Assembly (NCBI GenBank): GCA_041640055.1
Contig: JBEQAZ010000001.1
Span: 6,931 to 70,930 of the forward strand
Length of the DNA: 64,000 nucleotides
From: Candidatus Nanohaloarchaea archaeon
Lineage (GTDB): Archaea > Nanohalarchaeota > Nanosalinia > Nanosalinales > Nanosalinaceae
Reading direction: 5' to 3'
A model generated the notes under the pieces. That model did no database searches. It was not told the DNA's origin and saw nothing but the letters and a program-made list of their open reading frames with translations. Shown here piece by piece: positions 12,872 through 36,527 of this stretch (positions are counted from its first letter, which is position 1; the number at the start of each line of letters is the position of its first letter). Both the position numbers and the translations under genes were made by a program.

Positions 12872-12873
12872 AA

Positions 12874-14074: not shown

Positions 14075-14126
14075 TTTTTGAGAGAAGCCGCGTTAAATAA
14101 GTTCCAGCTGAAAAATCTGGTGGAAG

Positions 14127-14198: not shown

Positions 14199-14267
14199 AG
14201 GTAATTTGCTTATTTAGAAGTGGCCGGTCTGATTCTTAAATAATGATTCAGAGAATAGAGTACTTTT

Positions 14268-18477: not shown

Positions 18478-18537
18478 CTTCTATTGCAATACTGGTTAGG
18501 CGTTGTTAATAAATCCTCCAGAAACAAAAACAAGTGT

Positions 18538-19971
18538 ATGGAAAAGACTCTTCTGGTAGTCATAGACGGATTCGGAGTAAGAGAAGAAACACAGGGAAAC
18601 GCAGCAAAGCAAGCAGACACACCAAACCTAGACAGATTGAAGGAACAATACAACTACACTGAGCTAGAGGCATCCGGACCTGCCGTAGGACTACCCGAAG
18701 GATACACAGGCAACTCAGAGGTCGGCCATCTGCATCTAGGCGCTGGACGAACAATACCACAGCGACTCACACGGATCAATCAAGCCATAGAAAACAACAA
18801 ACTACAGGAAAAAGAAGCACTGAAAAACGCTTTTGAACGAGCCGAAGACAAAGATGTACCGATCCACCTAGCAGGAATCATAAGCGACGGCGGAATCCAC
18901 GGACACATCGACCACCTCAAAGCCCTGCTTCAAATATCTACTAATTATGAGGCAGAGGTCAAAATCCACTGCTTCACCGATGGCAGAGATGTAGCACCGA
19001 AAAGCGCAGAGAAGTTCCTGGATCAGATCGAAGACTGGACTGAAGAATACGGTGGCGAAATATCAACTATTATGGGTCGTTACTACAGTATGGACCGGGA
19101 CCACAACTGGGAGAGAACACACAAAGCTTACCAGGCGATGGCTCAAGCAGAAGGGTTCAGCTTTTCCGATCCCAGAGAAGCACTGGAAGAAACATACGAT
19201 GACGGCGACTACGACTACTTCATAATTCCTTCCGTCAGCGAAAACTATACTGGCATGGATGACGACCACGAGGTGGTTTTCTACAACTTTAGAGCCGATC
19301 GTGAAAGACAGATTGAAGAAGAACTAGTTGCACAAGTCGACCCTGATGATTTCAACGAGCCTATTCATCCGAATTTTACTTCGATGTTCCGTTACGAGCA
19401 TGAAATCGAAAACCCTGCGATCTTCGAGAAAAAGATAGTTGAAAACACATTGGGCGAGGAGCTTGAGGAAAAAGGTTATTCACAGCTGCGTGTAGCCGAG
19501 AGCCAGAAACGACCGCATGTTACTTTCTTCTTCAACGGTCAGAGAGAGCTCAAGTTCGAACATGAGGAACGCCATTTCGTGGAATCGGATAAAATTAAGG
19601 CTTATGATCAGAAACCGGAGATGCACGCAGATGATATTACCGATGTAGTTCTGGAAGCTATGGATGAAGGTGAGAAGGACTTCATACTACTGAACTTTGC
19701 TAACTGTGATTTAGTCGGTCATACAGGCGATATGGGGGCAGCGGTGACTGCTGCAGAAACAGTTGATCGAAATATAGGTCGATTAGTTGAAAAACTGAAG
19801 GAAACACATTATCGATTTATCATAACTGCTGATCACGGTAACTGCGAGGATATGGGGGCTAAAGACAGTCCTAACACCTCTCATACGACTAATCCTATTC
19901 CTCTGTTCACCGATATAGACATAGGAGATGATCTGGAAGGAATTACCGATATTAGATCGTTAATTACATAA
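18538..19971 (+). CDS. gpmI: 2,3-bisphosphoglycerate-independent phosphoglycerate mutase (iPGM)
   Basis: Homology begins at ATG 18538 with MEKTLLVVIDGFGVRE...ADTPNLDRL...GNSEVGHLHLGAGR, followed by SDGGIHGH and CDLVGHTGD...ADHGNCE. The 83 codons upstream in the track ORF are antisense to 18040..18477. Confidence 0.9.
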   Translation: MEKTLLVVIDGFGVREETQGNAAKQADTPNLDRLKEQYNYTELEASGPAVGLPEGYTGNSEVGHLHLGAGRTIPQRLTRINQAIENNKLQEKEALKNAFERAEDKDVPIHLAGIISDGGIHGHIDHLKALLQISTNYEAEVKIHCFTDGRDVAPKSAEKFLDQIEDWTEEYGGEISTIMGRYYSMDRDHNWERTHKAYQAMAQAEGFSFSDPREALEETYDDGDYDYFIIPSVSENYTGMDDDHEVVFYNFRADRERQIEEELVAQVDPDDFNEPIHPNFTSMFRYEHEIENPAIFEKKIVENTLGEELEEKGYSQLRVAESQKRPHVTFFFNGQRELKFEHEERHFVESDKIKAYDQKPEMHADDITDVVLEAMDEGEKDFILLNFANCDLVGHTGDMGAAVTAAETVDRNIGRLVEKLKETHYRFIITADHGNCEDMGAKDSPNTSHTTNPIPLFTDIDIGDDLEGITDIRSLIT

Positions 19972-21199
19972 TACGGGGGATATCTTCAGGCCAACATCTC
20001 TCTAGCAGAGGATTGTTTTGTACATAATCGTTCATTGGAGTCATTTCTTCTATCTGCCAGTCCACAGGTGATTGGTCCTCGTCAGCGTATTCTTCTTCTA
20101 TCTGAAGGAATAACTCAGAAATTCTCCAGTCTTCTCCCTCCTGACTGCACATAGGTATATTGACCTCTTCATCTAAGTTGACACTGGCATTTAGAGGACA
20201 GACATCTCTGCAGTCTTCTCCTACGGTCACATTATCCAGTAATAACTTCTCCATTTCACCTCGACTTTCTTCAGTTCCGTTGGGATACACCATAAGAAGG
20301 CTTACATTCTCCACATTTCTACGGTCATTAGATAAATCAACAGTAACATTTACTTGCTGTTGCTGTTCAATCATGAACTCTTGATTAACCTTCATTTCTC
20401 TCAGGAACATCTGACCGTCTTCAAAGGTTGGCAGGGCGTTTTCCGTCCAGCAATCGTTGAAACGAGTATCTCTCAAGTTCAAGGACTGATTCATTACTTC
20501 TATCCAGCCTTGTTTGGCCTCAAATGTTCCATCAGGCTCTCTTTCTTCGAATATCTGAATGAATACCCTCTGATAGAACTGGGATTGATCGCCTCTGTCG
20601 GTAACTTGACAGGGAGTTAGATTATCTGACATATTGCCTGGTTCCGAATAGGTGAAATTATTGCTTATTTGACATGTCTGCTGGTCGTGGCAAACATTTC
20701 CTACATTCCCTCCCCAATGCTGTGGGTGCTCACTGCTGTCACTTCCTGTTGGATAGAATACCTCGAATCCTACTGTATAGTATAAATCAGAGTCGTATTC
20801 AAATTCTCCATCATTCCATTCATCGGCACCATGCACATCACTTAGATATTCCTGTCCGTCCAGTTCTTCGAAGTCTATCTCATAATTATATGTTTCTCTG
20901 GAGTCATATACGGTGTACGAAGGCCAAGCGCCTATAACCACTCCATCCATCTTTGTAACACCGTTGTCCGCGTCTTCTATCTCGAAGGTCTGGATATTTC
21001 CATATATCTCACCGCATCCCATATCCTGATATTCCTCCTCTTGACCTGTTTCGCCTAGTCTTGTACACTCTGATTGATTCTGTACATCGGAGGAGTAACC
21101 TGATAGGAAGCTGGTTTGACCGAATACGAACGAGGCTGCGAAAGCAGCAGAAATAAATGTTACCATTAATACTACAATCGAAGATCCTACTTTATCCAC
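19964..21199 (-). CDS. Secreted Cys-rich acidic protein with an N-terminal pilin-like hydrophobic helix
   Basis: 411 aa. MDKVGSSIVVLMVTFISAAFAASFVFGQ is followed by an acidic domain with more than 12 Cys. It is the last gene of the filament supercluster. Confidence 0.6.
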   Translation of the reverse strand: MDKVGSSIVVLMVTFISAAFAASFVFGQTSFLSGYSSDVQNQSECTRLGETGQEEEYQDMGCGEIYGNIQTFEIEDADNGVTKMDGVVIGAWPSYTVYDSRETYNYEIDFEELDGQEYLSDVHGADEWNDGEFEYDSDLYYTVGFEVFYPTGSDSSEHPQHWGGNVGNVCHDQQTCQISNNFTYSEPGNMSDNLTPCQVTDRGDQSQFYQRVFIQIFEEREPDGTFEAKQGWIEVMNQSLNLRDTRFNDCWTENALPTFEDGQMFLREMKVNQEFMIEQQQQVNVTVDLSNDRRNVENVSLLMVYPNGTEESRGEMEKLLLDNVTVGEDCRDVCPLNASVNLDEEVNIPMCSQEGEDWRISELFLQIEEEYADEDQSPVDWQIEEMTPMNDYVQNNPLLERCWPEDIPRIM

Positions 21200-21204
21200 C
21201 TATC

Positions 21205-21465
21205 TCACCCACAGGATATGTCAACATTATCACAGTCTTGCAAATTGTTCCAGAGTTCTGTATCTCTTCCCTCAGTTATCTCCTCTCCATTCTCACAGAA
21301 CTTTCTTTCATAATTTGATTCCCAAAGACCACATCTAGCGTTGGAGGTAGTGTTATCAGAGAAACCTGTAAAACTATCTGTTTGACTGCTCATAAACGCG
21401 ATGACTATAACAGCTGCTATCATCAAGACCATGAGAACTACTACAATTTCCATGGTCTTATCCAT
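21205..21465 (-). CDS. Small pilin-like protein (tandem duplicate 1)
   Basis: MDKTMEIVVVLMVLMIAAVIVIAFMSSQ... has a short charged N-terminus plus a roughly 22-aa hydrophobic helix. The N-terminus is nearly identical to that of 21472..21723. Confidence 0.55.
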   Translation of the reverse strand: MDKTMEIVVVLMVLMIAAVIVIAFMSSQTDSFTGFSDNTTSNARCGLWESNYERKFCENGEEITEGRDTELWNNLQDCDNVDISCG

Positions 21466-21471
21466 TAAAAA

Positions 21472-21723
21472 TCACGCTGCTAAAGTGTCCTCTGATCGCG
21501 AGTTTGATCCAGGAATCTTATAGTTTTCCTCTCTTCCAAAGTTTGCGTTGTCGTTATCCGGTATTTCGTTCAGTTCCTCTGAAAGATTACCTTCGACATT
21601 CTCTCTTTGGCTATCAATAGAATCGCCAAAGCCTCCAATCTGGGAATTAGCCATCGCGATAATGATGACTGAGGCCACCATCAACACCATTGCTACGAGT
21701 ACTAGTTCCATCGTTTTATCCAT
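21472..21723 (-). CDS. Small pilin-like protein (tandem duplicate 2)
   Basis: The N-terminus is MDKTMELVLVAMVLMVASVIIIAMANSQ... The architecture matches 21205..21465. Confidence 0.55.
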   Translation of the reverse strand: MDKTMELVLVAMVLMVASVIIIAMANSQIGGFGDSIDSQRENVEGNLSEELNEIPDNDNANFGREENYKIPGSNSRSEDTLAA

Positions 21724-21735
21724 TATCTATCACTC

Positions 21736-22059
21736 CTATTCGCTGTCATCGCCTGTGTAGGTTGCTCCCTCGCAAACTACTGTACCAGTCTGCTCACGAT
21801 CTACACCGCTATAACCTCCTATGGTATCGCCTGAGACATCCGAACACTGGGAAGGTATCGGGAAGGTTCCTCCACTAATGCTACATCTTGATTCCACGGT
21901 CGCACGGCAGCCCTGTTCATTAGTACTGCTGAATAGGTCGTTTAGGCTTCCTTGTGCCATGAATACTACAATTAGTGCTGTCATCATCAGTACGGATGCT
22001 GCGACGATGAGGGTTAGTATTTGTGACATTCCTTTTTGAGAGGAAAGTTTATCCATCAT
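21736..22059 (-). CDS. Pilin-like protein with a class III signal peptide
   Basis: MMDKLSSQKG|MSQILTLIVAASVLMMTALIVVF carries a [KR]G cleavage motif followed by a hydrophobic helix, the hallmark of archaeal type IV pilins. Confidence 0.6.
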   Translation of the reverse strand: MMDKLSSQKGMSQILTLIVAASVLMMTALIVVFMAQGSLNDLFSSTNEQGCRATVESRCSISGGTFPIPSQCSDVSGDTIGGYSGVDREQTGTVVCEGATYTGDDSE

Positions 22060-22151
22060 ATAGGTTGGTTTGGGAGGGTTGAATAAAAATGCTTCCCAGT
22101 TAGTCGGTTTTTCTAGAAAAATAAGGGAGAAAAATATGTGGTTGACAGGCT

Positions 22152-22445
22152 TTATGCCTGGGATAGGTTCAGTTGGATACTTGAGACATTGAGTTCTTCT
22201 CCTTCATCGGTCTCAATCTGGTCGGTTCCTGTCTCGATGTCATCTACTTGTACATCTTCGAGGAAACGGTTCTTTACAATTTCTACTACATCTACTGCTC
22301 GGCTGATTGCTTTTCCACGAGCCTTTACATGAACCGTTTCATGTCCTTCTGTGAACTGGGTTACTACTGCCAGTACATAGCTGTAAGCTGGCTTAGAACC
22401 GACATATACTGTGTTGTCGTCTTCTTCTACTTGGTCGTCTGCCAC
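22152..22445 (-). CDS. albA: Alba DNA/RNA-binding protein
   Basis: [21 protein letters not shown]...[25 protein letters not shown] matches the Alba family core. The 97-aa size fits. Confidence 0.9.
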
Positions 22446-22502
22446 TACTAAATCACCTATACAGCTATAGAATCTAAAAGGATAAAAAACCTGCTAGTGA
22501 GG

Positions 22503-23738
22503 CTAGTCACCGATCGGATGAGTGTACTTGTAATCAAACGGAATATTGGTTGACATTCCTTTGTGGGTTGGAACAGAGTTATCTACATCCGTGATATTTA
22601 TCTCTGCATAGTAAGTCGCTAGGCTTACATTGTATTCATACTTTTTCTTGACTAATGTGTCTGGCGCCTGTTCATGTTCATGAGTATGTGATACACAGGT
22701 AGTTGCATCTGAGTAGAAAGGTTCATATGAACAGTCTGGCCCTGCTCCTCTGTAAGAACCTGAATGGGTGTGACCTCCCTCGCAGTTATCCTGCTCACAG
22801 GTGCTGTTGAGATGTTGATGTGTCAGATCACATTCGACATCATAAGTATTCGCTGGACTTCCAGGAACATAGTTTGACGCCCATTCGGTGCTAAGCACTT
22901 CTAGGTACCCTGGTTTATCTGAATTACTGGCTGCATCACTTACTTTTCCTTGAATCTTATCTCGAGCATCGTTTTTAGCAGTGTTGTATGCCTCATCCTT
23001 GGCTTCTTCTCTGTTTTCACTGTCAGGATCGCATTGTCCTGTAGTCTCATTTGCCGTATCATAAATGGGCGGGTTGAAGGAGTCTCTTAGCTCCTCAGTC
23101 ATCTCTACAGCGAACTTGTAGGTAGGAATATAATTGTGATCGATATTTTCCTGTCTATCATATGCAGGACGATCTGAGAAGAAGAAATTCTCCATTTTAT
23201 CTATTGCTTTACTCTCAAACCCGCCCTTACCACATTTAATTATATTGCTATCCATATTGTAACCAAATATATGTCCATCAGTGTAGCCATACATCTCATC
23301 TACACTAAAGTACCCAATATTAGGAACTGAGCATCCTGCATAATAATTCTGCGATCTTATACCATACTCGTTATGAGCCACTATAGACTCGTTAAAGTCG
23401 GATAGTAACTGTTCTTCCGCAGGTATATTTGATTTATTCCATTCTCTGTCTGAACCGTTCGTCCCGAGTTCGTAGGCAGCGTTATTGATAGCGTATTCTA
23501 CATTATTTGATAAGAAAATTGGATAATGACTGGTCTTCGCGTATGTCTCAGCCATCTGCCTGTGATCTCCCGTATAAATACTCCAAACATGTCCTAACTG
23601 TTGTTTAGCGAATAATGTGGTAAAAAGACCTCCTCCAGATATAAATAGCAGCGTTACCACTACGAGAATGCTCAGAAACTGACCTTTGCTTATTCTGGAT
23701 ATTTTATCCTCGTAGGAATTCTTTATTGATTCAATCAT
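22503..23738 (-). CDS. Secreted protein with a class III-type signal and a Cys/His-rich C-terminal region
   Basis: The N-terminus is ...ISRISKG|QFLSILVVVTLLFISGG. The C-terminal part reads CDLTHQHLNSTCEQDNCEGGHTHSGSY...CVSHTHEHEQ. It overlaps the upstream gene by 4 nt. Confidence 0.6.
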   Translation of the reverse strand: MIESIKNSYEDKISRISKGQFLSILVVVTLLFISGGGLFTTLFAKQQLGHVWSIYTGDHRQMAETYAKTSHYPIFLSNNVEYAINNAAYELGTNGSDREWNKSNIPAEEQLLSDFNESIVAHNEYGIRSQNYYAGCSVPNIGYFSVDEMYGYTDGHIFGYNMDSNIIKCGKGGFESKAIDKMENFFFSDRPAYDRQENIDHNYIPTYKFAVEMTEELRDSFNPPIYDTANETTGQCDPDSENREEAKDEAYNTAKNDARDKIQGKVSDAASNSDKPGYLEVLSTEWASNYVPGSPANTYDVECDLTHQHLNSTCEQDNCEGGHTHSGSYRGAGPDCSYEPFYSDATTCVSHTHEHEQAPDTLVKKKYEYNVSLATYYAEINITDVDNSVPTHKGMSTNIPFDYKYTHPIGD

Positions 23739-24337
23739 GGTGCTGCACCGTGTGTTGGAGGAGTTGACCCCGAAGCTTGACCGCCCGAGTAGGTCTGTGC
23801 TACATTTCCTCCTATATTAAATCTGAGAGCTATGTGATCTGATTTAGGAGAGGCTATATACCATCTACCTGCTTTTCCTAGCCATACTTCTTCGTTTCTG
23901 CTGTAGAAATTTTCGCTATCTGGATAGTATACATGTAAATCATATTTTTCCACAGAAGGAGTGTCATCGTATTGGCTTGCGTCCAGATTTACCACCGTTT
24001 CTACGCTTTGATTCAATGTCTCGTATTCATTGAAGAATTCTTCGTAATCGTCTTCTGAGGCATCATCAAAGTTATTCCAGGAGGGTTTATCTGTAAATGA
24101 CATTTCTCTCAAGCTTTCTCTTACATCTGAGAATCTTGCTATGTGATAAAGCCCTACGACTGACTGCAGGCCTTTCTGGTTTTTATTAATTGTTCCCTTA
24201 AGCGTTGCATCAAGTTCATTATCGGAAAGTTGCCACCCTGCCAGCAGCATCATTAGAATCATTGGCACCATGCCTATTGCCAAGGTTACTATTCCTATCT
24301 GTCCTGTCCTAAAAAAGTCATATTTACTTTTAGCCAC
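23735..24337 (-). CDS. Pilin-like protein (class III signal)
   Basis: The N-terminus is MAKSKYDFFRTG|QIGIVTLAIGMVPMILMMLLAGW. It overlaps the upstream gene by 8 nt. Confidence 0.6.
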   Translation of the reverse strand: MAKSKYDFFRTGQIGIVTLAIGMVPMILMMLLAGWQLSDNELDATLKGTINKNQKGLQSVVGLYHIARFSDVRESLREMSFTDKPSWNNFDDASEDDYEEFFNEYETLNQSVETVVNLDASQYDDTPSVEKYDLHVYYPDSENFYSRNEEVWLGKAGRWYIASPKSDHIALRFNIGGNVAQTYSGGQASGSTPPTHGAAP

Positions 24338-24776
24338 TTTTTTCTACACCTCCCCATACAACATTATCAGCGCCGACATATAAGGGAACAGACCTTACCC
24401 ATCCTCCAGAAATACAGTTGTCTAGCTTGTTTTTAGCATCTTGATTACCTAGTGTTTCTACATTCATGAAATCTAGTCTCAGTTCCCCACCCTGATTAAC
24501 AAATCTGTCATTACCTTCCAAAGAACATTCGTTAGCATCTAGATGCACTGCGTTGGCCAAGTGATCTGATTCATAATACACACCTAGTGCTACCGATGTA
24601 TGTTCATTTCTTAGTAAGTGGAGAGCTCCTGCACTTTCCCATGTAGCTTCCTTATAATCTACACTTACACCGCCTGCTGCTTCTCTCACCATAGCAGTCT
24701 GCATCTGAATAACTGCATTAATGATGAATAGTAGGAATACTGTTCCAGCGATGAGGGCGAAGGCATTTCTATCCAT
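24330..24776 (-). CDS. Pilin-like protein
   Basis: MDRNAFALIAGTVFLLFIINAVIQMQ has a short charged N-terminus plus a hydrophobic helix. It lies 3 nt downstream of the previous gene. Confidence 0.55.
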   Translation of the reverse strand: MDRNAFALIAGTVFLLFIINAVIQMQTAMVREAAGGVSVDYKEATWESAGALHLLRNEHTSVALGVYYESDHLANAVHLDANECSLEGNDRFVNQGGELRLDFMNVETLGNQDAKNKLDNCISGGWVRSVPLYVGADNVVWGGVEKSG

Positions 24777-24779
24777 CTG

Positions 24780-25199
24780 TTAGCATCTACCCCTATATAT
24801 CAGAACATCTTCGGATCCTGCAGTTTTGTTGAAGCAGTAGAATCTTCTATATTCAGCTCCTTCTGCATTACTTATTCTGTATTTGATAGTGTCATCTAGA
24901 GGGTGTATAAACTCCTCTCCGTTGAACTTGAAGGATACATAGTCTCCTCTGTTTTCTTCGAATATTTTGTATCTTCTTCCGAAATCCATCTGGTATTTCA
25001 TATCATCAAAGGCTCTCAAACCGTATGCCGATCTTTCTATACGAGTTGCTGTCAGTTCAACGCTTTCACTTCTTATTACTCCGTTAACATCTACTAGCAT
25101 CGAGTTTGCCAATGTTGCAATAATACCTACGAGCATGAATGTGACTATAGCCAGTGCCACAGTTTCAAAATTTCCCTTTCTTCTATTTTTTAGGTGCAT
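24780..25199 (-). CDS. Pilin-like protein (class III signal)
   Basis: The N-terminus is MHLKNRRKG|NFETVALAIVTFMLVGIIATLANS. Confidence 0.6.
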   Translation of the reverse strand: MHLKNRRKGNFETVALAIVTFMLVGIIATLANSMLVDVNGVIRSESVELTATRIERSAYGLRAFDDMKYQMDFGRRYKIFEENRGDYVSFKFNGEEFIHPLDDTIKYRISNAEGAEYRRFYCFNKTAGSEDVLIYRGRC

Positions 25200-25205
25200 G
25201 TGAAA

Positions 25206-25598
25206 TCACTGGTCTACACTGTACTGTGTATCTCCATCATCTGCTTCTCTCTTATTCACAGTATAATCTCCTGCCGTGACAGTAGTTTGAGTGTTTACAT
25301 TACAGGCTACCTGCCGGCTTTCGATAGTCTCACCATCGGGATTCTTTAGTTTAAAATCTTGATAATCAAGTACAATTTCATAGCCTGACTGTAAGTCTAT
25401 AGACCCTGATTCTTCATCATCTCCAGAACAGACATTGTTGATGTCTTCAACCAAGCTGTTCGAGGCTGTTCTTGCAACTCCTTTCTGTTGGGCGCCTACA
25501 GTACCCATTATTATCTGAGGCATTATCAGTAGAGCTATACCAACGCCTATTGTTCCTGCTACAAAGTTGCTTGTAGTTATTGGGCTTGTATTTGTCAT
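25206..25598 (-). CDS. Pilin-like or secreted small protein
   Basis: MTNTSPITTSNFVAGTIGVGIALLIMPQIIMG is followed by a 95-aa acidic beta-rich domain with 2 Cys. Confidence 0.5.
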   Translation of the reverse strand: MTNTSPITTSNFVAGTIGVGIALLIMPQIIMGTVGAQQKGVARTASNSLVEDINNVCSGDDEESGSIDLQSGYEIVLDYQDFKLKNPDGETIESRQVACNVNTQTTVTAGDYTVNKREADDGDTQYSVDQ

Positions 25599-25807
25599 AT
25601 TTGTGTATCTGCTGTTGTTTCTCCGGCTACTTGGATATATGGTTTTGAGATATTATCCTCGTAGGATGTGAAGCCTAGGTTCTCTCCTAGAGAGTCGTCA
25701 TTTGCTCTGTCGGTGATATTGCCTACACCCTGTTCTCCTATGCCTATCCCTCCAGAGATTAGAGAGTACAGAATTGTGATTATCAAGACGGCGAGTACTA
25801 CTGCCAT
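25595..25807 (-). CDS. Small hydrophobic-N-terminus protein
   Basis: 70 aa, starting MAVVLAVLIITILYSLISGG... The in-frame upstream codons read ..LNHETAVA. It overlaps the next gene by 4 nt. Confidence 0.45.
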   Translation of the reverse strand: MAVVLAVLIITILYSLISGGIGIGEQGVGNITDRANDDSLGENLGFTSYEDNISKPYIQVAGETTADTQI

Positions 25808-25842
25808 GGCTACTGCGGTTTCGTGGTTCAGTTCCGATCACC

Positions 25843-25974
25843 TCATTCCAGTGTCATGAATTCTCCCATAAATGATTCCAGCCCTCCAGCGTTCTGCTGG
25901 ACTACCATCACTATTGCTAGAAGTATTAGTGCTCCTAATAGTAGGGATACTACAAATCTCAGGGAGAACTCCAT
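25843..25974 (-). CDS. 43-aa single-helix micro-protein, not in the ORF track
   Basis: I translated it by hand: MEFSLRFVVSLLLGALILLAIVMVVQQNAGGLESFMGEFMTLE*. It fills the gap between 26006 and 25807 on the operon strand. Confidence 0.35.
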   Translation of the reverse strand: MEFSLRFVVSLLLGALILLAIVMVVQQNAGGLESFMGEFMTLE

Positions 25975-26005
25975 GGTAACTGTTTGGGTTCAGCTGGTTT
26001 TTATT

Positions 26006-26212
26006 CTATTGGGGCTGAACTCTAGTGCTTTCCTCGCTGAACTGGGTTAATGCGCCGTCCAACCATCCTGAAACCGAAGCGAAGTAGACTGACACAAAAA
26101 TTATTGCCAGAGTTATCGCTGCCACGATAAATACAGGTTTATCCAATCCCTTCCTGTTCCGAGTTTTCGCCAGGCTGCACATGTTTTTCGTCAAGTAGTA
26201 GAGCTCGTTCAT
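26006..26212 (-). CDS. Small pilin-like protein (class III signal)
   Basis: The N-terminus is ...AKTRNRKG|LDKPVFIVAAITLAIIFVSVYFA. Confidence 0.5.
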   Translation of the reverse strand: MNELYYLTKNMCSLAKTRNRKGLDKPVFIVAAITLAIIFVSVYFASVSGWLDGALTQFSEESTRVQPQ

Positions 26213-26221
26213 AGTAAATTT

Positions 26222-27682
26222 TCAACCTCCATAATCGATACCCTCCCAATATCTAATTCTTACATCATCCGTTATCTTGACATAACTCTCTCCATCAGAT
26301 CCCTCTGTCACGCACGAATCTGGGTCTCCCCCTGTAACACGGATGTAAGTAGTCATTTTAGAGGAGCTCACACTTGGATCATCTCCGACTACATGCTCTC
26401 CTCCACCTCTACCATTATCCTCTCTGTTGGTCTGAATATAACCTGTTGTTCCAGGACATAATACATATTTAGCTCTCTCTTGGAACCGAAGTCCTCTCTC
26501 CTCCCGGTCATCCTCATTACCTACATTTCCATATTCTATGTAGCCTTCATCAGATTCAGACAATACTGCTGGCGCATCAACAACCACCTGACCCATCTTC
26601 AAACCTACTCCCGGCCAGTTAGCATCTCCTTCAATTACCTCTAAATCATAAGGAGTATATCTGGCGAAATCCGCGCCGGCAAGGGTTGGAATAACTTTCA
26701 CATTGAAATCCGCCCAGGAATTAGATGTCATTACCGTAGCCCCTGCGGCTGCTCCCATTAAGGCTCCGGTTGCTGGGCCTCCAGCAAAGGTCCCAAATGC
26801 TCCAGCACCAACCGCAGCACCTCCTGCAGCCACAGCTCCTATGCCTAGTCCAGTCCAGCATGTCCCCTCATCTGATTCTTCATTAACAAAGTTAGATGTC
26901 CAGACATAGTCGCGTCTTAAGGGATCTGCTTTACTTGTTGCAAGTATAATAGGATCTTCTACATTACTATCTATTTTGAAAGGTACTCTGCCGTATCTTC
27001 CTTCCATGTCATTCCCTGATCTTTTGACCCATCCAGGAACCTTACTGCAGGTAATAGCTCCCCAAAAATCACCTGGAGCAGAAACTATTGCATCATAGGT
27101 TCCTCCAGCAACATAACCTACAGGATTAGTAAGTATTTTATCTGAAGGCAGAGAAGATTCTACTCTCTGAACACCAACGCATCTAGGTGTATATCCTGTA
27201 AACTGAATTGCATAGTTAGGCGCTCTTTCCAGCATCAAATCCTGCGTATTTCGACCAGGTATCGCATAAAAAGGATTTTTCTTAAAATCGCCGTCAATTT
27301 CGTTTTTAAGGCTATCCGGTATTGTAAATCCAAACCGATCTCCTCCATCTTCTTCTCTGACGACATTGGTTAATATCATCCTTCCGGATATCAAGTCTGA
27401 AGCTCTATCGCAGCTTATAGCTGATAACTGACTTACTGCTATCACATCTCTGAACATTTCTGTCCCCGGATGATCTGCGTGATAGTACTCGCTATCGGTA
27501 GCATTTTCGATGGCGGTTTGGTCGATGTATAGCCGGTTATTTTCTCTTTCCAGAATCGCGTCCATCATTCCGTATTGTTCATCTACAGAGGCTGTTTTCA
27601 TGGTCTGTAGCGATCCTAGAACAGCGCTACCTATCATAAGCGGGATAATTACTAGACCTATTATTTTGGTCAGAGACCACAT
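26222..27682 (-). CDS. Large secreted or anchored filament-associated protein (paralog 1)
   Basis: 486 aa with N-terminus MWSLTKIIGLVIIPLMIGSAVLGSLQ. It shares the blocks GNDMEGRYGR and C..TTGYIQTN with 27722..29143. It carries a unique internal Gly/Ala-rich hydrophobic stretch. Confidence 0.65.
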   Translation of the reverse strand: MWSLTKIIGLVIIPLMIGSAVLGSLQTMKTASVDEQYGMMDAILERENNRLYIDQTAIENATDSEYYHADHPGTEMFRDVIAVSQLSAISCDRASDLISGRMILTNVVREEDGGDRFGFTIPDSLKNEIDGDFKKNPFYAIPGRNTQDLMLERAPNYAIQFTGYTPRCVGVQRVESSLPSDKILTNPVGYVAGGTYDAIVSAPGDFWGAITCSKVPGWVKRSGNDMEGRYGRVPFKIDSNVEDPIILATSKADPLRRDYVWTSNFVNEESDEGTCWTGLGIGAVAAGGAAVGAGAFGTFAGGPATGALMGAAAGATVMTSNSWADFNVKVIPTLAGADFARYTPYDLEVIEGDANWPGVGLKMGQVVVDAPAVLSESDEGYIEYGNVGNEDDREERGLRFQERAKYVLCPGTTGYIQTNREDNGRGGGEHVVGDDPSVSSSKMTTYIRVTGGDPDSCVTEGSDGESYVKITDDVRIRYWEGIDYGG

Positions 27683-27721
27683 GAATTACTCTTAGAGTTT
27701 CTTTATTGTAAAAGGTATCGT

Positions 27722-29143
27722 CTAATCAACAGAAATCCATCCTATTTCCCAGATATGTGCAACTGTGCGGCCATCACTTTTCCAGTCATACTTACGGGTC
27801 ACACACTCGTATTCACCAGTATAGTAGTCTACTACTTTTTCTTCATTTGCGTCCTGTAAATTATTACAGGAGTGGCTTGTACCATAGAGGTTACCATGTT
27901 CAAGAATATCCGGCCCTCCTTCGTGCTGATTTTTGAGACAAGCAGTTTTGTTGCCCTGAACCTTGACTTTAGTAAATGTCCGAGTTTCAAAACCTCTGTA
28001 CTCTCCAACTACCTTGTTATTCTTGCCCCAAACCGCTTCTCCGTTGTTCCATATTGTGTTTGCATTAGTTTGGACATATCCCGTTGAGTTTTCACAAACT
28101 GCATAAAATACCTCTTTTCTTGGGAAGTCACCTTCTCCTGCATCATTTCCCTCCGCACTTCCCGCAGGATAATCATCTGCAGGGACGATATTATCGAGAT
28201 TTGCAGTACTTAACGCAGGAGCATCTATTATTGCGTCGCTTTCAGCACTGCTATGCTCTACAAATGCAGGATCGTTACCGTTCACACCATAGTTTCTGCC
28301 TTCAGGAGTCCCGCTGTCCGGCCATGGAAGCCAGTCCATATATTCTCCTCCTTCAAAAAAGTGAGGTCCTACATATTCCTCATTATCTGCAGGACAGTTA
28401 CCTACATAGTTGAGGAACTGTGGACCCCAAACTCGGCCGTCATATTTTCCAGGAAAGATGGTTACTTCCGAATCAAATGTTATTCTCCCATATCTCCCCT
28501 CCATATCATTTCCTCTGTTAGATAACCAGCTAGGTTCAAGTTTACATGTAGCTATATTCCATAGATCTTCTAAACCTCCTACAAATGTATTAATAGCGAA
28601 TTCATATCCTGCTCGGAGCAGATTACCTTTTCTCAAGTGCTTAATTCTTTTATCAACCAGATGATGGCTTATAGCGTTCCCCGTACCCACACATGTCGGC
28701 ACATAGTTTGACCTTTCCAGATAGTTGAATAAGCTGTACTCTTCGCCATTAGGTCTTCCGGGTATTACATATTCGATTTTAGTAGGGCTGTTTTGACCAA
28801 TCTTTCCTGGTATCCCCGACCCCGACTTGTAGTTTGACAGTTTGTTTCCTTCCTGACCTTGAGCGTGTATCCAGTAAAGGAGTCGACAGTTAACGGCCGA
28901 GATTTGACTATATATTACAACTCCTCGAAACTGTTCTCTGGCGATATCACGATCCACTGTACCTTCACCGCCAGGAGCCTGACCTATTACAATATTTCTA
29001 GCCTCCTTGTTTATGTCTTGACGTGCGTTTTCATGCCAGAGATCGAGTTCATTTGTTCGAAGCTGTTCTAGACCTGTAAGTATTATGGCTCCGAACATCA
29101 GCGGTAGAAGTACTATAACTACTAGTTTCTTTATTGATAGCAT
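27722..29143 (-). CDS. Large secreted or anchored filament-associated protein (paralog 2)
   Basis: 473 aa with N-terminus MLSIKKLVVIVLLPLMFGAIILTGLE. The shared blocks are RGNDMEGRYGRITF and CENSTGYVQTN. Confidence 0.65.
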   Translation of the reverse strand: MLSIKKLVVIVLLPLMFGAIILTGLEQLRTNELDLWHENARQDINKEARNIVIGQAPGGEGTVDRDIAREQFRGVVIYSQISAVNCRLLYWIHAQGQEGNKLSNYKSGSGIPGKIGQNSPTKIEYVIPGRPNGEEYSLFNYLERSNYVPTCVGTGNAISHHLVDKRIKHLRKGNLLRAGYEFAINTFVGGLEDLWNIATCKLEPSWLSNRGNDMEGRYGRITFDSEVTIFPGKYDGRVWGPQFLNYVGNCPADNEEYVGPHFFEGGEYMDWLPWPDSGTPEGRNYGVNGNDPAFVEHSSAESDAIIDAPALSTANLDNIVPADDYPAGSAEGNDAGEGDFPRKEVFYAVCENSTGYVQTNANTIWNNGEAVWGKNNKVVGEYRGFETRTFTKVKVQGNKTACLKNQHEGGPDILEHGNLYGTSHSCNNLQDANEEKVVDYYTGEYECVTRKYDWKSDGRTVAHIWEIGWISVD

Positions 29144-29144
29144 G

Positions 29145-29360
29145 TTAACAGAGTTCTAAGCGGCCTCCCGTCATATCTGCAATAACTGATGCCAGATTGG
29201 TACATCCTGAGGCGGCTTCTCCTGATTTTTGGATCGCTGAAACAGTCATAGTTCCCAGAATTAGAAGTAGTAGTAGAGCTATGATTACTCCTATGATGAA
29301 AGGTATTGCCTGTACCCCTTTCCTGTGTGCTTTAACTTTCAGGGAAGGGTCGATTTCCAT
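29145..29360 (-). CDS. Pilin-like protein (class III signal), first gene after the platform protein
   Basis: The N-terminus is MEIDPSLKVKAHRKG|VQAIPFIIGVIIALLLLLILG. At 71 aa it is minimal, which makes it a candidate major subunit. Confidence 0.6.
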   Translation of the reverse strand: MEIDPSLKVKAHRKGVQAIPFIIGVIIALLLLLILGTMTVSAIQKSGEAASGCTNLASVIADMTGGRLELC

Positions 29361-29435
29361 ACTGTCATAAACGCGGCGATTAGTATTAAAGCTAATGCCA
29401 GCCCTATCATCGCATTTATTCCAAGTTCTGCTTTT

Positions 29436-31616
29436 CTAGACTGCACCCATCTCACCTACCATTCCGCCGAACATCAGTGCCACTATCAGTACAGTCATAG
29501 TGTAGAACATGAGTCCGGCGATCATGACTTTTCCGATAAACATGTTTCTGTAGGTCTCGTTCTCTCCCTTTGTGATCTTCATGTAGAAGGTTCCAAGCAA
29601 GTAGAGAAGCTGGATCAGGTAGATTCCAACAACAAGTTGCAGAAGTTCCGGCGGGATAGCTTCATCCAGATTTCCGAGGATCCCTCCGAAGCTAGATACA
29701 CCTCCGCCTCCTGGAGCTCCAGCAGGGCCTCCAGATCCTATGCCAGCATTTGCTTCCTGGAAAGATGTTGATAGTCCAAACATAGAGGTGATGATTGTCT
29801 GGCTCATTCCTACTGCCACTCCTGATACAACAGGAGCTAGCATGTATGCAAGCATCTGGATAGTGGTTGTAGTATCTTCCATCAGGTCATTCAGTTTTTC
29901 CTGTGTTTCATGGATATTCTCCAGATATCTTGATATTGTAAGCATCGCCTGAGAGGCCATCTTGTTTCCTTTCTCCGATGAACGGATTATAGCCCGCATT
30001 ACTGTCGATATTAGTTGGCTTGGGAATTCATGTACCGCCCCATACTGATCATCAAACAGAGATTCCTCGAAAGTCATACCCATTCTATGAATATTTGTTG
30101 AGGCCGAGTTGAACAACTGAGAGATTTCCATATCTGATGTTGCCTCGGCTGCATCCTCCAGTGCGACTTCTATAGGCGTTCCCCCCGATATCTTGTTTCC
30201 TAGCTGGAAGAGTGCTGTCGGGAACTGCTTTTCGATGCTGTGAATCTCTTCTTCAGCTGCCTTACGCTCCATATTCCCGAGTACTTTAGAAACTCCTATT
30301 CCTAGGCCCAGACCCAGTGTTATTGAAACACTTCTGAGCAACATCGGTAAAGGTGCCAGAGAACCGCCTGATGTGAAAATTCCTGGCACTGCCGCAGGAT
30401 CAATATCTGAAACCGGGTAGAATGCCGGGAACGCCAGATATCCTAGGAATCCGTAGGCTGATACAACCAAGAATATTGCTGCTCCGATCATCCATGTAGG
30501 TATCTCCAGTTCCGAATCGATGAGTTCTATTCTGTAGATACCACGGTCTGGAAGCCTATCTTCATCAGTTGAAGAGCTGGATGAAACGGTTGGCGGACGG
30601 GAGCTAAGCACTCTCTGCATGAATACATAGAGAGTGGAAGGAAGCATGATGTTGAACAGTATAATCAAGTGTAGAGGAGTAATTGCGTCTCCCATGAAGA
30701 CTGAGATGAGCGGAAGCATGATCATCGCAAGTACCGGAAGCATAGCTCCTAAAGCGTTCAGTATCATTACCGGCGTCTTCAGCCCCTGAGCATAGTGCTT
30801 CATCTCTTCTCTGGTCCCATCAAGAATTGTATCGATAGCGTCCTGAAGCATATCGTTTCTTCTCTCGGCGTTAGGCTCGTTCATCGAACCTTTGATCAGG
30901 TTCAGAGACTGGAGGAAGTCGTCATTGTAGTCCTTCCACTTCTTGGTGTAATTCTCTAGCGATGTCTCAACATTCGCGTATTCTCCGACCTCTACATTCC
31001 AGAGAACCTCCTTCAAGTCATCGGAAATCGGCCCATCTAGATTGAGAGCCGCGAAACGTAGAGCCCCCTCTAGATTCGGACTTGAACGCATGTATACCAC
31101 CATGTAGAGTATTGCAAGAATCATCTCTCCGCTGCTCCGGATCACCTTGTTCTGCGCCTCAAACTTCGGTTTATAGAAAATGAAAACTGCCACGCCAAAG
31201 GGTACGATAGCAGAGATAGCCATCAGCGAAACCGGGATAATCGCTCCTAGAAGCATGTTTACCGCGAAAAGGAACATCCATGTAAGGAATCCTATTATAG
31301 CTGCTCCTACAGTTCCTGAGAGAACCTGGCCAGGCGTTATCTGCCATCCAAGAAGCTTTATAGCGGGATTCAGTTTGTTAATTGTGCTTTCGTCGGCTTC
31401 AAGATTAAGGTAGCCTGCCATCCGATGGCAGAACTTTTCATACTTGGAAATTTGGCGTGCATGCTCTTCCTCTTCTTTGAATTCTTTGTATCTTTTCGAG
31501 TACAGGCTGTGACGGTTGTTGTCATAAGGCGGGAGCTGGAGATCCTTGTCGATGTCATTAAGAATATTCTTTATGTCTTCTTTTTCATCTTCTCCAAGTC
31601 CACCTTCATCTCTCAA
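29436..31616 (-). CDS. FlaJ/TadC/PilC-like polytopic membrane platform protein (type II secretion system F-like)
   Basis: 726 aa. Soluble helical domains alternate with clusters of transmembrane helices. It lies immediately downstream (6 nt) of the secretion ATPase, which is the canonical pairing. Confidence 0.75.
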   Translation of the reverse strand: MRDEGGLGEDEKEDIKNILNDIDKDLQLPPYDNNRHSLYSKRYKEFKEEEEHARQISKYEKFCHRMAGYLNLEADESTINKLNPAIKLLGWQITPGQVLSGTVGAAIIGFLTWMFLFAVNMLLGAIIPVSLMAISAIVPFGVAVFIFYKPKFEAQNKVIRSSGEMILAILYMVVYMRSSPNLEGALRFAALNLDGPISDDLKEVLWNVEVGEYANVETSLENYTKKWKDYNDDFLQSLNLIKGSMNEPNAERRNDMLQDAIDTILDGTREEMKHYAQGLKTPVMILNALGAMLPVLAMIMLPLISVFMGDAITPLHLIILFNIMLPSTLYVFMQRVLSSRPPTVSSSSSTDEDRLPDRGIYRIELIDSELEIPTWMIGAAIFLVVSAYGFLGYLAFPAFYPVSDIDPAAVPGIFTSGGSLAPLPMLLRSVSITLGLGLGIGVSKVLGNMERKAAEEEIHSIEKQFPTALFQLGNKISGGTPIEVALEDAAEATSDMEISQLFNSASTNIHRMGMTFEESLFDDQYGAVHEFPSQLISTVMRAIIRSSEKGNKMASQAMLTISRYLENIHETQEKLNDLMEDTTTTIQMLAYMLAPVVSGVAVGMSQTIITSMFGLSTSFQEANAGIGSGGPAGAPGGGGVSSFGGILGNLDEAIPPELLQLVVGIYLIQLLYLLGTFYMKITKGENETYRNMFIGKVMIAGLMFYTMTVLIVALMFGGMVGEMGAV

Positions 31617-31622
31617 TCCTTA

Positions 31623-33887
31623 TTACACCTGTCTTTCCAGCCATTCTTCCCATCTCGCCATTATTCTCTCAGTTTCCTGGCCGCCATACTCTTTTCTTAC
31701 TTCTTCAGCGATTGTATGGTACTTCTGATTTGCCTTTACAACGAACTCTGCCTCCAGAAGTTCGTCGTTACCTGTTTCATCTGCTTTGTCAGCTATCTTC
31801 TGTTTCATATCCTTTCGTAGCTGAATATTATCCCATACTGCTTCCCAGTTGTTCTTCCATTCACGGATATTGGAGGCGATACGGTTCAGAATAAGCGATT
31901 CGCCGTTAAGAAGTGTATCTGTCGGTACAAGTTCATCTTTATTGCTGTCGTAACGCATGAGCTCGACGAAAGCGTTCTCCTCCTGGGGATCATCAGTCCA
32001 CGATTTTCTGACCTCGGTGATGCCTGTTACTCTTCGGTATGTCTCCAGGCCGTCCGGACTTCGGATCTTGTTGACCGATACGATGATATCTGTAGCCTTG
32101 AATGAAGTTTTCGGCACATTCAGGTCGTTGACTACTCGGTCGAATACGGAGTATGCGTCTTCTCCGTGGATCGTTCCTCCAACGAAGTTTGCTACTGCCC
32201 CTACACGCATAGCTTCGTAGAGTGCCTGTGCTTCATCAGATCGTACTTCTCCGATGACAAGCGCTGAGTCTCCTAGTCGTAGTGATGTTCTGATGGCCTC
32301 ATCTGCTCCTAATTCGCTTTCGTTCTGTGTGATGACGGATTGTGATTTCATCCGTTCGATGTTGTATCCGAGGTCTTTCATCTGCGGAATCGGAAGCTCT
32401 AGCGTGTCCTCTACAGTGACTATGCGGTGGTTCTTCATGATTTCGAGCATGGATGCGGATAGTATGGATGTTTTTCCGGCTCCTCGTGTTCCTGCGAATA
32501 GTACGGAGCGGTTTCCGTCGACGATGAATGATAGTAGTGCGGCTCCGAGTGCGTTGATCATACCGTTGTTGACGAATAATGGTAGGGTCCATGCTCGTGA
32601 TCGGTGGCGTCGGAAAGCGAACGCTAATCCTTCGGGCGACAGGCTTTCCTGAATGACTGCTACTCGGGCTCGGCCTCCTTCGACCTCTGTCTCGGTATCC
32701 AGTACTGGGTTGGCTTCGTCTAGCGGGCGGCCTGACTGTATTCTGAACCGGGTTGCCCATGACTCTGCTTCGTCTCTTGTCGGTATCAGGTTGGTTTTAC
32801 ATTCCTCGTAGTCCTGATGGCTGATGTACATCGGTGAGTCTCCAATCGGGGAGTTGATGTAGACATCCTGTACTTTCGGATCTGAAAGCAGGAGTTCCAG
32901 TACTCCGAGTCCGGAGGTGTACCTGTTTAGTATGCTGGTTAGTTCTTCCAATTCTTCCATATCCAGGTTCATGTCCATTTGTGCGGCGATATCTCTTAGC
33001 ATGTCTTTTCCGATGTTCTCGAATACATCCCTCATTCTTTCCGGCTCCGCGAACTCTCCTGACTCTGGTTTATGTGATGCCATGTAGCGTCGTGCTGCGT
33101 CAAGTAGCTTGTATTTCTCTTCTGAAAGGTTGAATTCCGGCGGGTCGATGTGGTATACTGGTCGGGTTTTTCCTGGTACGCGGTAGATGGTTACTTCTAC
33201 ATCGTTACGGGCTTCGTACCGGTCGATCTCCTCTCCTTTTTCGGGAGGGAGGCTCATGAACTTCGTAAGCATGAAGTTCGGCCGAACCAATGGGTGGAAG
33301 AACTCTCTGTATACATCCCTGTCCCCTACATGGAAGCCTGTAATGTACTCTTGTGCCTGATCGATTATCTGGCATTCTTCTATTCTTTCTCTTATCGGTT
33401 TGAGGACATCCTGTACGAAGTATTTGTTGCATCTCTTCTGCTGTGGGTAACCTTCCTTCATTTTCTGTTTCATGTGGCGCTCTTTTCTCTTTATCTTAAC
33501 ATATGCGCCGACCGGGTCTCTTCTAAGCCGGTCTAGAACTATTTTCTGTACTTCCGGTAGTTCTTCTGAGTAGAGTTCCTGGCATTTATTTCTGTCGATG
33601 TCCTGTGAGAGGTATCCTTGGTTTGCGATGTCTTCAATCGCTGTCGATATTTCTTTAAGTAGTTCTATCTGTTCTTCGGTGTATTCGTAGTCTCTGGATT
33701 CTGATAGTACTACAGAGCTTGCTCCAGGTACTTCTTCCAGTATATCTACTACTCTACCCATTACTTCGGGGTAGTCCTCTATTGAGGCTCCGTAGACTGA
33801 TCCCAGAGTGTTTACTTCTATTGTGCCGGATTCCTCGTCGTATTCGTAGTCGAAAATGTCTTTGTCTGAAGGGGGCATACCAAGCAT
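31623..33887 (-). CDS. Type II/IV secretion-family ATPase (FlaI/PilB/VirB11-like) with a long N-terminal extension
   Basis: It has Walker A FAGTRGAGKTS, the Asp-box region IVTVEDTLELPIP, Walker B-like ALVIGEVR and the His-box region GGTIHGE. At 754 aa it is far longer than the roughly 550 aa typical of FlaI. Confidence 0.9.
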   Translation of the reverse strand: MLGMPPSDKDIFDYEYDEESGTIEVNTLGSVYGASIEDYPEVMGRVVDILEEVPGASSVVLSESRDYEYTEEQIELLKEISTAIEDIANQGYLSQDIDRNKCQELYSEELPEVQKIVLDRLRRDPVGAYVKIKRKERHMKQKMKEGYPQQKRCNKYFVQDVLKPIRERIEECQIIDQAQEYITGFHVGDRDVYREFFHPLVRPNFMLTKFMSLPPEKGEEIDRYEARNDVEVTIYRVPGKTRPVYHIDPPEFNLSEEKYKLLDAARRYMASHKPESGEFAEPERMRDVFENIGKDMLRDIAAQMDMNLDMEELEELTSILNRYTSGLGVLELLLSDPKVQDVYINSPIGDSPMYISHQDYEECKTNLIPTRDEAESWATRFRIQSGRPLDEANPVLDTETEVEGGRARVAVIQESLSPEGLAFAFRRHRSRAWTLPLFVNNGMINALGAALLSFIVDGNRSVLFAGTRGAGKTSILSASMLEIMKNHRIVTVEDTLELPIPQMKDLGYNIERMKSQSVITQNESELGADEAIRTSLRLGDSALVIGEVRSDEAQALYEAMRVGAVANFVGGTIHGEDAYSVFDRVVNDLNVPKTSFKATDIIVSVNKIRSPDGLETYRRVTGITEVRKSWTDDPQEENAFVELMRYDSNKDELVPTDTLLNGESLILNRIASNIREWKNNWEAVWDNIQLRKDMKQKIADKADETGNDELLEAEFVVKANQKYHTIAEEVRKEYGGQETERIMARWEEWLERQV

Positions 33888-35903: not shown

Positions 35904-35909
35904 GGTCTT

Positions 35910-36521: not shown

Positions 36522-36527
36522 TTTCTA

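Follow-up and report, generated by a model that had tools for sequence, protein, structure and literature searches.

Nanohaloarchaea need a haloarchaeal host for growth, and the mode by which this host is recognised and held is an unsettled question. Which machine is encoded by a cluster of minus-strand genes in a 64,000-nucleotide stretch of the genome of a Candidatus Nanohaloarchaea archaeon (assembly GCA_041640055.1, contig JBEQAZ010000001.1, positions 6,931 to 70,930 of the forward strand; this whole stretch is called the window)? The cluster occupies positions 19964-33887 of the window and comprises 17 open reading frames (ORFs). An ORF listing reproduced their coordinates and their common orientation as given in a first-pass annotation, which had been made from the sequence alone. 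The locus encodes one ATPase with a FlaI/GspE fold, one T2SSF platform protein, and some 15 proteins that have a hydrophobic helix at the N-terminus. It is very probably a conserved nanohaloarchaeal type IV filament machine of the pilus-like kind. The first-pass annotation had also assumed a reduced, probably host-dependent halophilic archaeon as the source, which is supported by its being a nanohaloarchaeon.

For comparison, 18 related loci were fetched, namely that of Candidatus Nanohalobium constans (CP040089), 15 loci from a scan of one genome per species, and two from close relatives; together with the window this makes 19. Single loci are designated L001, L002, and so on. The first-pass annotation had made its interpretation dependent on conservation in related genomes, and the cluster was found to be syntenic in all 18 loci. 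The gene order is common to Nanohalobium, Nanosalinarum and other genera. In N. constans, the ATPase gene is followed by the platform gene, then by one for a 71-aa protein, one for a large protein and five to six for small proteins; after a gene for a protein of about 330 aa come Alba, two further small proteins and a convergent iPGM. The motor genes of the window are the following:

31623..33887, minus strand: secretion/assembly ATPase of 754 aa; FlaI/GspE fold, extended by an extra region at the N-terminus and by helices at the C-terminus
29436..31616, minus strand: polytopic membrane platform of 726 aa (FlaJ/TadC/PilC-like; Pfam T2SSF), with a TTG start

The motifs FAGTRGAGKTS and VTVEDTLELP, which had been named as signatures of a secretion ATPase, are both present in the ATPase ORF, and the protein matches Pfam T2SSE (3.9e-16). 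Its scores with the NCBIfam models of FlaI (NF058587; 141.4 bits, cutoff 550) and TadA (TIGR03819; 121.6 bits, cutoff 373) are below both cutoffs, and it is therefore an equivalog of neither. Sequence matches to proteins in the PDB were best for AfGspE from Archaeoglobus (2OAP; 89 bits), followed by CpaF (69 bits) and FlaI (68 bits), and residues 294 to 700, approximately, are the sole part that aligns to these solved relatives. An AlphaFold2 (AF2) model of the ATPase (pLDDT 86) was matched by Foldseek to FlaI and to GspE with E-values of about 1e-27 and some 540 of 754 columns aligned; it superposes equally well on both (TM-score normalised to the target, 0.77-0.80). The structure thus gives no separation between FlaI and GspE as the nearest relative, and the sequence scores separate them weakly. 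According to the model, the parts left over from the alignment are about 200 N-terminal residues, predicted to form an alpha/beta domain and a helical bundle, and the C-terminal helical extension.

The first-pass annotation had regarded the oversized ATPase and platform as a peculiarity of this cluster. This does not hold. Orthologs of the ATPase number in the hundreds (76-100% identity), and those that carry a name are all from Nanohaloarchaea (Nanohalobium constans, Nanohalovita, Nanosalina, Haloredivivus). Almost all of the orthologs have a length of 750-765 aa; a minority reaches about 1250 aa owing to inteins. Full-length homologs of 700-840 aa with 34-49% identity occur in Micrarchaeota/Anstonellales, in the metagenome-assembled genome of another DPANN archaeon and in Methanolobus zinderi, and the large size is therefore a trait of the clade. 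Extra domains that are specific to the subsystem, in particular extended N-terminal ones, have been described for the ATPases of archaeal type IV filaments (TFF) other than the archaellum (PMC4858521; bioRxiv 10.64898/2026.04.22.720090), whereas archaellum ATPases typically lack large extra domains (bioRxiv 10.64898/2026.04.22.720090).

Many of the orthologous ATPases contain one or two inteins, which brings their total length to 1250-1943 aa. Such genes are found in L003 (6223-9969), L006 (4564-8316), L011 (6245-9997), L015 (6008-9997) and L016 (4114-9945), and the proteins P0081, P0099, P0111 and P0133 are also of this type. The match between the ATPase of the window and its intein-bearing orthologs breaks near residue 496, in the conserved VEDT/LELP box; the copy of the window is free of inteins.

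The platform gene starts 6 nt downstream of the ATPase gene. Its product has about 8-10 hydrophobic segments and matches T2SSF just above the gathering cutoff (27.2 versus 25.2 bits, residues 470-597); no solved relative was found by sequence. Platform orthologs of 708-732 aa are present in all loci. Compared to N. constans, the platform is 62% identical over its full length, and the ATPase 77%.

What does this motor assemble? The remaining proteins of the cluster begin with, or shortly before, a hydrophobic helix, and several of them carry a class III-type leader (a slash marks the predicted cleavage site):

29145..29360, minus strand: p71, mini-pilin with an HRKG/VQAIPF... leader and a C-terminal Cys...Cys loop; by its motif a candidate major or core pilin
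27722..29143, minus strand: big473, large Cys-containing surface protein that has a helix at the N-terminus and may act as adhesin or tip component; orthologs of other lineages carry [KR]G leaders
26222..27682, minus strand: big486, divergent paralog of big473 (BLASTP E 2e-19, 23% identity, shared GNDMEGRYGR)
26006..26212, minus strand: p68, small pilin-like protein, ...NRKG/LDKPVFIVAAI; orthologs keep RKG/[LM][DS]KP[VI]F
25843..25974, minus strand: p43, hydrophobic mini-protein of 43 aa, MEFSLRFVVSLLLGAL...; conserved, previously unlisted ORF within a 198-nt gap
25595..25807, minus strand: p70, small protein with a hydrophobic helix from the N-terminus on, without [KR]G; orthologs start with MN(x)ETA...
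25206..25598, minus strand: p130, pilin-like, N-terminal helix; [KR]G lacking here, present in orthologs of other lineages
24780..25199, minus strand: p139, minor-pilin candidate by its leader motif, MHLKNRRKG/NFETVALAIV
24330..24776, minus strand: p148, N-terminal hydrophobic helix MDRNAFALIAGTVFLL, without [KR]G
23735..24337, minus strand: p200, minor-pilin candidate, FRTG/QIGIVTLAIG; orthologs MKG/, MRAVKG/, MARKG/
22503..23738, minus strand: p411, large pilin-like protein, ISKG/QFLSILVVV; contains 8 Cys and 7 N-glycosylation sequons and may be a tip or adhesin subunit
21736..22059, minus strand: p107, SQKG/MSQILTLIVAASVLMMTAL, 3-4 conserved Cys; leading major-pilin candidate
21472..21723, minus strand: p83, small protein, MDKTMEL and then directly the hydrophobic helix; N-terminus invariant
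21205..21465, minus strand: p86, paralog of p83 by alignment, MDKTMEI..., 4 Cys
19964..21199, minus strand: p411b, large and acidic, 10 Cys and 10 sequons, starts with MDKVGSSIVVLMV; lineage-specific

All six class III leaders reported by the first-pass annotation are present. Five of them meet a strict rule, which demands [KR][GA] followed by a hydrophobic stretch; the sixth, FRTG/Q of p200, contains a Thr at position -2 and fits a relaxed form. The archaellin motif is RG/QVGIG, which the RTG/QIGIV of p200 resembles. In the 19 loci, the motif occurred in 111 of 297 ORFs of the cluster; for ORFs outside it, the count was 13 of 1081, which gives an odds ratio of 49 (p about 9e-67). As judged from the sequences, the cluster thus holds subunits with class III-type signal peptides, for which cleavage is predicted. 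The canonical leader (class A) is found in p71, p68, p139, p411 and p107, to which p200 is added with its TG. In other genera, the orthologs of class A proteins display minimal leaders (MKRKG/, MNRKGQ/, MKGQ/, MRRKG/) with the hydrophobic helix directly after them, which by sequence is the archaeal prepilin pattern. In a second group (class B: big473, big486, p43, p70, p130, p148, p83, p86 and p411b), [KR]G is lacking and the helix begins at residue 1 or close to it. Large proteins of the big473/big486 type and p130 possess class A leaders in other lineages.

Among the pilin-like subunits, p107 is the most conserved one: homologs are present in 12 of 15 loci with 34-70% identity, and the family shares an invariant KG.SQ.L..I.AA.V.MM as well as conserved cysteines. 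The family found at the position of p71 in 14 loci keeps [KR]KG, the hydrophobic helix and GC...AS.I.D.TGG...C; the mature p71 would have a length of about 57 residues. Matches of this family to DUF7299 were below threshold, concerned four of 14 orthologs and are not informative. Homologs of p139 were found in nine of 15 loci, every one with a short M..[KR]KG leader. Orthologs of p43 lie at 15739-15870 in L002 and at 18026-18157 in L017, where the copy has been called as a gene. For p70, the ATG used by L002, eight codons upstream, is missing in the copy of the window. The N-terminus of p83 and p86 differs from that of the other proteins. Across 12 sequences of this family, M1, D2 and K3 show no or almost no variation and are followed by [TIL]-x-[EQ], with no Gly at position -1. 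Judging by this alignment, the MDK-type N-terminus is a second, unexplained class of pilin-like N-termini without canonical cleavage motif. Compared to the rest of the window, the proteins of the cluster are rich in Cys (1.7 versus 0.66 per 100 aa) and in N-glycosylation sequons (0.94 versus 0.47 per 100 aa), a composition that is expected for exposed proteins.

The large proteins had been described as cargo that matches no recognised family. The second half of this statement stands: searches with Pfam, NCBIfam, PHROGs and PADLOC were negative, and so was Foldseek with the model of big473. The designation as cargo was abandoned. Each of the 473- and 486-aa paralogs opens with a long N-terminal helix; these proteins are therefore pilin-like or anchored rather than cargo. 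In the AF2 model of big473, which is of moderate quality (pLDDT 66, pTM 0.71), a helix of 43 residues (4-46) precedes a beta-rich head; this moderate model yielded no Foldseek match at E < 0.3 in the PDB or in a viral library, by which a novel fold is not established. The cysteines of big486 are conserved in the family alignment. The family is restricted to the genus, with 19 members in 5.8 billion proteins, seven of which were contributed by a profile search. Orthologs of p411 are present in eight of 15 loci and have the N-termini MNRKGQ or MKGQ. In contrast, among the same 15 loci an ortholog of p411b was found in L002 only; p411b matches the archaellin/pilin N-terminal model TIGR02537 weakly (14.6 bits, cutoff 20).

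As the first-pass annotation had stated, no archaellum component is present in the cluster: archaellin (Arch_flagellin), FlaH, FlaF, FlaG, FlaC/D/E and FlaX gave no above-threshold match with any of its ORFs in profile searches of Pfam and NCBIfam. With the T2SSE/T2SSF pair and the class III leaders, this upholds the view of a pilus-like machine that is not an archaellum.

A further property of the locus is the uneven divergence of its genes. The amino-acid identity to the window was determined for three relatives; the list includes the chromatin protein Alba, which is encoded within the cluster, and the coiled-coil genes adjacent to the ATPase gene:

ATPase: L002 99%, L017 97%, L018 95%
Alba: L002 99%, L017 99%, L018 91%
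Coiled-coil genes: L002 96-97%, L017 86-93%, L018 77-82%
Platform: L002 96%, L017 89%, L018 68%
Pilin block (big473 to p411): L002 38-67%, L017 55-79%, L018 mostly no match at E 1e-3

Relative to L002, dS (synonymous divergence) amounts to 0.03 in Alba and 0.47 in the ATPase; flanking genes are at 0.2-0.5 and the platform at 0.92. In the pilin block, synonymous sites are saturated (proportion of differing synonymous sites, pS, 0.68-0.85); both genes adjoining Alba are saturated as well. The history of the block must therefore reach back much further than that of its flanks, and relaxed constraint is insufficient as the sole explanation. In L018, the platform (12273-14438) differs evenly along its length from that of the window. 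It is 69% identical in a global alignment, which is near the level between genera (61-66%), while the pilins are unrecognisable and the ATPase is 95% identical. The platform thus diverges along with the pilin block, which suggests that they are functionally coupled. None of the 18 loci is closer to the L018 platform than 69%, that is, no donor lineage was found among them, and replacement of a module is therefore indistinguishable from an episode of accelerated co-divergence. In the comparisons between genomes on which this point rests, the ATPase, Alba and the coiled-coil genes are 92-100% identical, whereas the pilin block is synonymously saturated. It is possible, if doubtful, that platform and pilins form a co-evolving, exchangeable specificity module on a near-invariant ATPase.

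These findings can be combined in a model of the machine. A hexameric ATPase of the FlaI/GspE type with clade-specific N- and C-terminal extensions would dock on the single polytopic platform, and, acting together, they would draw pilin-like proteins out of the membrane for polymerisation into a surface filament. At least six subunits would enter this process with class III leaders ([KR/T]G plus hydrophobic helix), cut by a prepilin peptidase that would be encoded elsewhere in the genome. The bulk subunit is likely to be p107 or the mini-pilin p71. The fast-evolving block, consisting of the 473- and 486-aa proteins, p68 to p200 and the 411-aa protein, most likely supplies a priming or tip complex and adhesins that touch the haloarchaeal host, and attachment to this host is the likely role of the filament. 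The divergently oriented coiled-coil proteins and a trio of membrane proteins upstream are probable accessory parts.

Filaments and proteomic detection in cultured relatives support the proposed leader processing, filament composition and role in host attachment indirectly. FlaI, FlaJ and one pilin were detected in the proteome of N. antarcticus (PMC6642349), archaella- or pilus-like stalks were observed on N. constans cells (PMC7443923), and N. occultus displayed pilus-like connections and up-regulated pilus genes (PMC11803251). Four points weigh against the proposed filament machine. The filaments observed by electron microscopy have not been tied to these genes by any experiment. A class III signal peptidase (PibD/FlaK/EppA, Peptidase_A24) was not found among the multi-transmembrane ORFs of the window (no Peptidase_A24-like ORF, no GxGD in membrane proteins), in agreement with the first-pass annotation, nor in the Pfam-annotated flanks of L001, L017 and L018. 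About nine helix-first proteins are without canonical [KR]G site; they may therefore be unprocessed anchors or Sec substrates. Finally, no subunit reached the threshold of a pilin family profile in Pfam or NCBIfam.

Could the same genes build something other than a pilus? The alternative that fares best, improbable as it is, is that the machine makes no long adhesive pilus but a short pseudopilus, or a platform akin to a bindosome, by which the large proteins are displayed or secreted or through which DNA or nutrients of the host are taken up. ATPase, platform and class III leaders would fit it equally, and the many large non-canonical subunits and very small mini-proteins are in line with it. 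Uptake via pili has been proposed for DPANN archaea, which lack nucleotide synthesis (PMC9563170), as have archaeal TFF machines that display binding proteins (bioRxiv 10.64898/2026.04.22.720090). However, profile searches detected no substrate-binding-protein, ComEA/ComEC-like or nuclease domains in the cluster, the ATPase scored 65 bits with the bindosome ATPase model at a cutoff of 1000, and cultured nanohaloarchaea bear long filaments. It is very unlikely that the ATPase and platform lie beside an unrelated island of membrane-anchored surface proteins whose [KR]G is not processed. The interleaved Alba and the adjacent iPGM gene, T-run gaps that suggest separate transcripts, the missing canonical site in more than half of the proteins, and the almost independent evolution of pilin block and ATPase would agree with such an island, but the order of the genes and their linkage to ATPase and platform were kept in 18 of 18 loci across deep divergence, and both the motif enrichment and the coupled divergence of the L018 platform argue for a common machine. 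Hardly credible is an archaellum operon that drives the swimming of free nanohaloarchaeal cells, as implied by the N. constans annotation (FlaG, FlaI, FlaJ): the databases label the ATPase FlaI, its structure matches FlaI as well as GspE, an adjacent coiled-coil protein has a sub-threshold FlaC_arch match and La Cono et al. (2020) saw archaella-like stalks, but the ATPase is far below the FlaI cutoff and has large extra domains, profile searches found none of the archaellum-specific proteins among the cluster ORFs, and Hamm et al. in 2019 and 2024 likewise concluded against an archaellum.

The proposed pilus-like machine can be compared to other filament systems. With the archaellum it has in common a homologous ATPase and platform as well as subunits bearing class III leaders. 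With the bacterial Tad/Flp pilus it shares very small pilins, the lack of a retraction ATPase gene in the locus and an ATPase that matches TadA/CpaF. In contrast to TadB plus TadC there is one platform, and there are no secretin or outer-membrane parts; the Flp motif G/xxxxEY is absent from all leaders examined, and the TadA equivalog cutoff was not reached. In bacterial type IVa pili, for example in the pilin groups of Pseudomonas aeruginosa, pilin and minor-pilin genes form allelic cassettes, such that the subunit block varies and the motor is conserved. The subunit genes studied here likewise vary as a block between strains, with a conserved motor. Judged from published descriptions (PMC4858521; bioRxiv 10.64898/2026.04.22.720090) and gene features, the locus resembles in its content the euryarchaeal adhesion pili (clade 2/subclade 4F of Makarova et al. 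2016; "system 2" of Sivabalasarma and Albers 2026): an ATPase with extended N-terminus, a single platform gene, class III signal peptide pilins next to pilin-like proteins without this signal, large adhesin-like proteins and an intracellular coiled-coil protein. The full-length ATPase homolog of Methanolobus zinderi is an indirect clue to such a relationship. Unlike in those pili, no pilin here reaches a Pfam or NCBIfam pilin profile, and the membrane trio and the MDK-type N-termini do not appear in the excerpts of these descriptions.

The first-pass annotation considered the system undescribed. This claim has to be withdrawn, since an ortholog, an apparent counterpart and the whole class have been published (PMC7443923, PMC11291902 and PMC6393860, respectively); the locus is a member of a catalogued kind of archaeal filament that is already in print. 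La Cono et al. (2020; PMC7443923) report for Ca. Nanohalobium constans an operon of FlaG, FlaI, FlaJ, FlaJ2 and seven hypothetical proteins, which they likened to euryarchaeal archaellum operons; from the synteny, we infer that this operon and the present locus are orthologous. Such genes were reinterpreted as type IV pilus genes by Hamm et al. (2019). For cluster 2 DPANN archaea, Hamm et al. (2024; PMC11291902) report two pilus-like loci that are conserved and include coiled-coil proteins; a figure legend there assigns filament proteins (FlaF, PilA) to Locus 1 only. The present locus appears to correspond to Locus 2 of that account, with which it shares a CpaF/FlaI-like ATPase, a TadC/FlaJ-like platform and coiled-coil genes alongside. 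It differs from Locus 2, as outlined there, in having its own pilin-like genes; they number about 15, and six encode proteins with class III leaders. In N. antarcticus, the coiled-coil protein NAR1_01690 adjoins NAR1_01710, an intein-bearing FlaI of 1249 aa, which in this respect is like several of the ATPase orthologs described above. The 4F ATPase was recorded in "nanoarchaea" by Makarova et al. (2016; PMC4858521), who left its cognate pilins unidentified; according to Makarova et al. (2019; PMC6393860), DPANN islands of FlaI/TadC and signal-peptide dark-matter proteins encode diverse pilins. A literature search for hypervariability or genomic islands of nanohaloarchaeal pilins gave nothing relevant.

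Several genes within and beside the cluster had been overlooked or misread. One of the 17 genes counted as a filament cluster encodes Alba; the inventory also lacked the 43-aa ORF and the neighbouring coiled-coil and membrane proteins:

22152..22445, minus strand: Alba chromatin protein (Pfam Alba, 5e-21), no pilus component
33921-34331 and 34391-35314, plus strand: two cytoplasmic coiled-coil proteins of 136 and 307 aa, divergent from the ATPase gene
35391..36785, minus strand: trio of membrane proteins of 170, 203 and 85 aa, upstream of the locus, conserved in 12-14 of 15 loci

Alba is found in the same position in 12 of 15 loci with 74-100% identity. Inspection of the sequence by eye revealed T-runs downstream of the p411 gene and of Alba, that is, on both sides of Alba, which is therefore probably transcribed separately and at a high level. 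The overlaps of 4, 8 and 4 nt given in the first-pass annotation (23735-23738, 24330-24337 and 25595-25598) were confirmed. With regard to its spacings of 1-10 nt, the quoted overlaps and short gaps are correct, but further gaps of 39, 57, 75, 92 and 198 nt exist. Together with these larger gaps, the T-runs point to probably at least three transcription units, and the notion of one operon was therefore given up.

The coiled-coil pair is kept beside the ATPase in L001, L002, L003, L017 and L018 with 51-97% identity. The 307-aa protein has, besides coiled-coil matches, a sub-threshold match to FlaC_arch (18.6 versus 27.8 bits). The two proteins are probable accessory or regulatory partners of the machine and likely correspond to the "CCPs" described for the DPANN locus in PMC11291902; in that report (Hamm et al. 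2024), DPANN CCPs are likened to the viral sigma-1 attachment protein. For the membrane trio, profile searches gave no family match; its 203- and 170-aa members are distant paralogs, and the three may be components of the machine. A reading of this pair as the two parts of a split and divergent prepilin peptidase was rejected: the proteins contain neither GxGD nor an invariant transmembrane Asp, and have no Pfam match.

The iPGM gene converges with the distal end of the cluster. It is contained in a 560-aa ORF (18289-19971, plus strand) that includes a spurious N-terminal extension of about 80 codons, and at its 3' end this ORF shares 8 nt (19964-19971) with the convergent p411b gene. Just past iPGM, two extremely acidic coiled-coil proteins of 503 and 145 aa are encoded on the minus strand (16450-17961 and 18040-18477); in L007, L009 and L011, this position is taken by ORFs whose N-termini are similar. 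On the other side, positions 38062-41279 (minus strand) encode two paralogs of about 535 aa with a signal-like N-terminus ending in ATANHGGS, coiled-coil stretches and C-terminal hydrophobic segments, which are 38-91% identical between close relatives. Farther away, on the plus strand, lie the genes for a secreted 1442-aa protein with PKD, CARDB and carboxypeptidase-regulatory-like domains (48524-52852) and for a 586-aa protein with Ig-like domains (52955-54715). These last two are candidate host-interaction surface proteins outside the filament locus.

For the biology of nanohaloarchaea, the gain is incremental and not conceptual, given that this kind of system has been catalogued in archaea. 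With regard to the accounts in print, as far as their excerpts reach, the increment comprises the inventory of class III pilins, the 43-aa ORF, the embedded Alba, the MDK N-termini, and the block with saturated dS and co-diverging platform. Two pilus-like loci have been proposed to serve the recognition and holding of the host, and the present locus is one of them. It has its own complete pilin set, including p107 as major-pilin candidate, and hypervariable Cys-rich large proteins, which makes the host question testable. If platform and pilins are indeed an exchangeable specificity module, shaped by recombination or by diversifying selection that host or virus imposes, the pilin block would be a determinant of nanohaloarchaeal host range, and the MDK-T-x-E proteins would represent a new class of pilin-like subunits with non-canonical processing.

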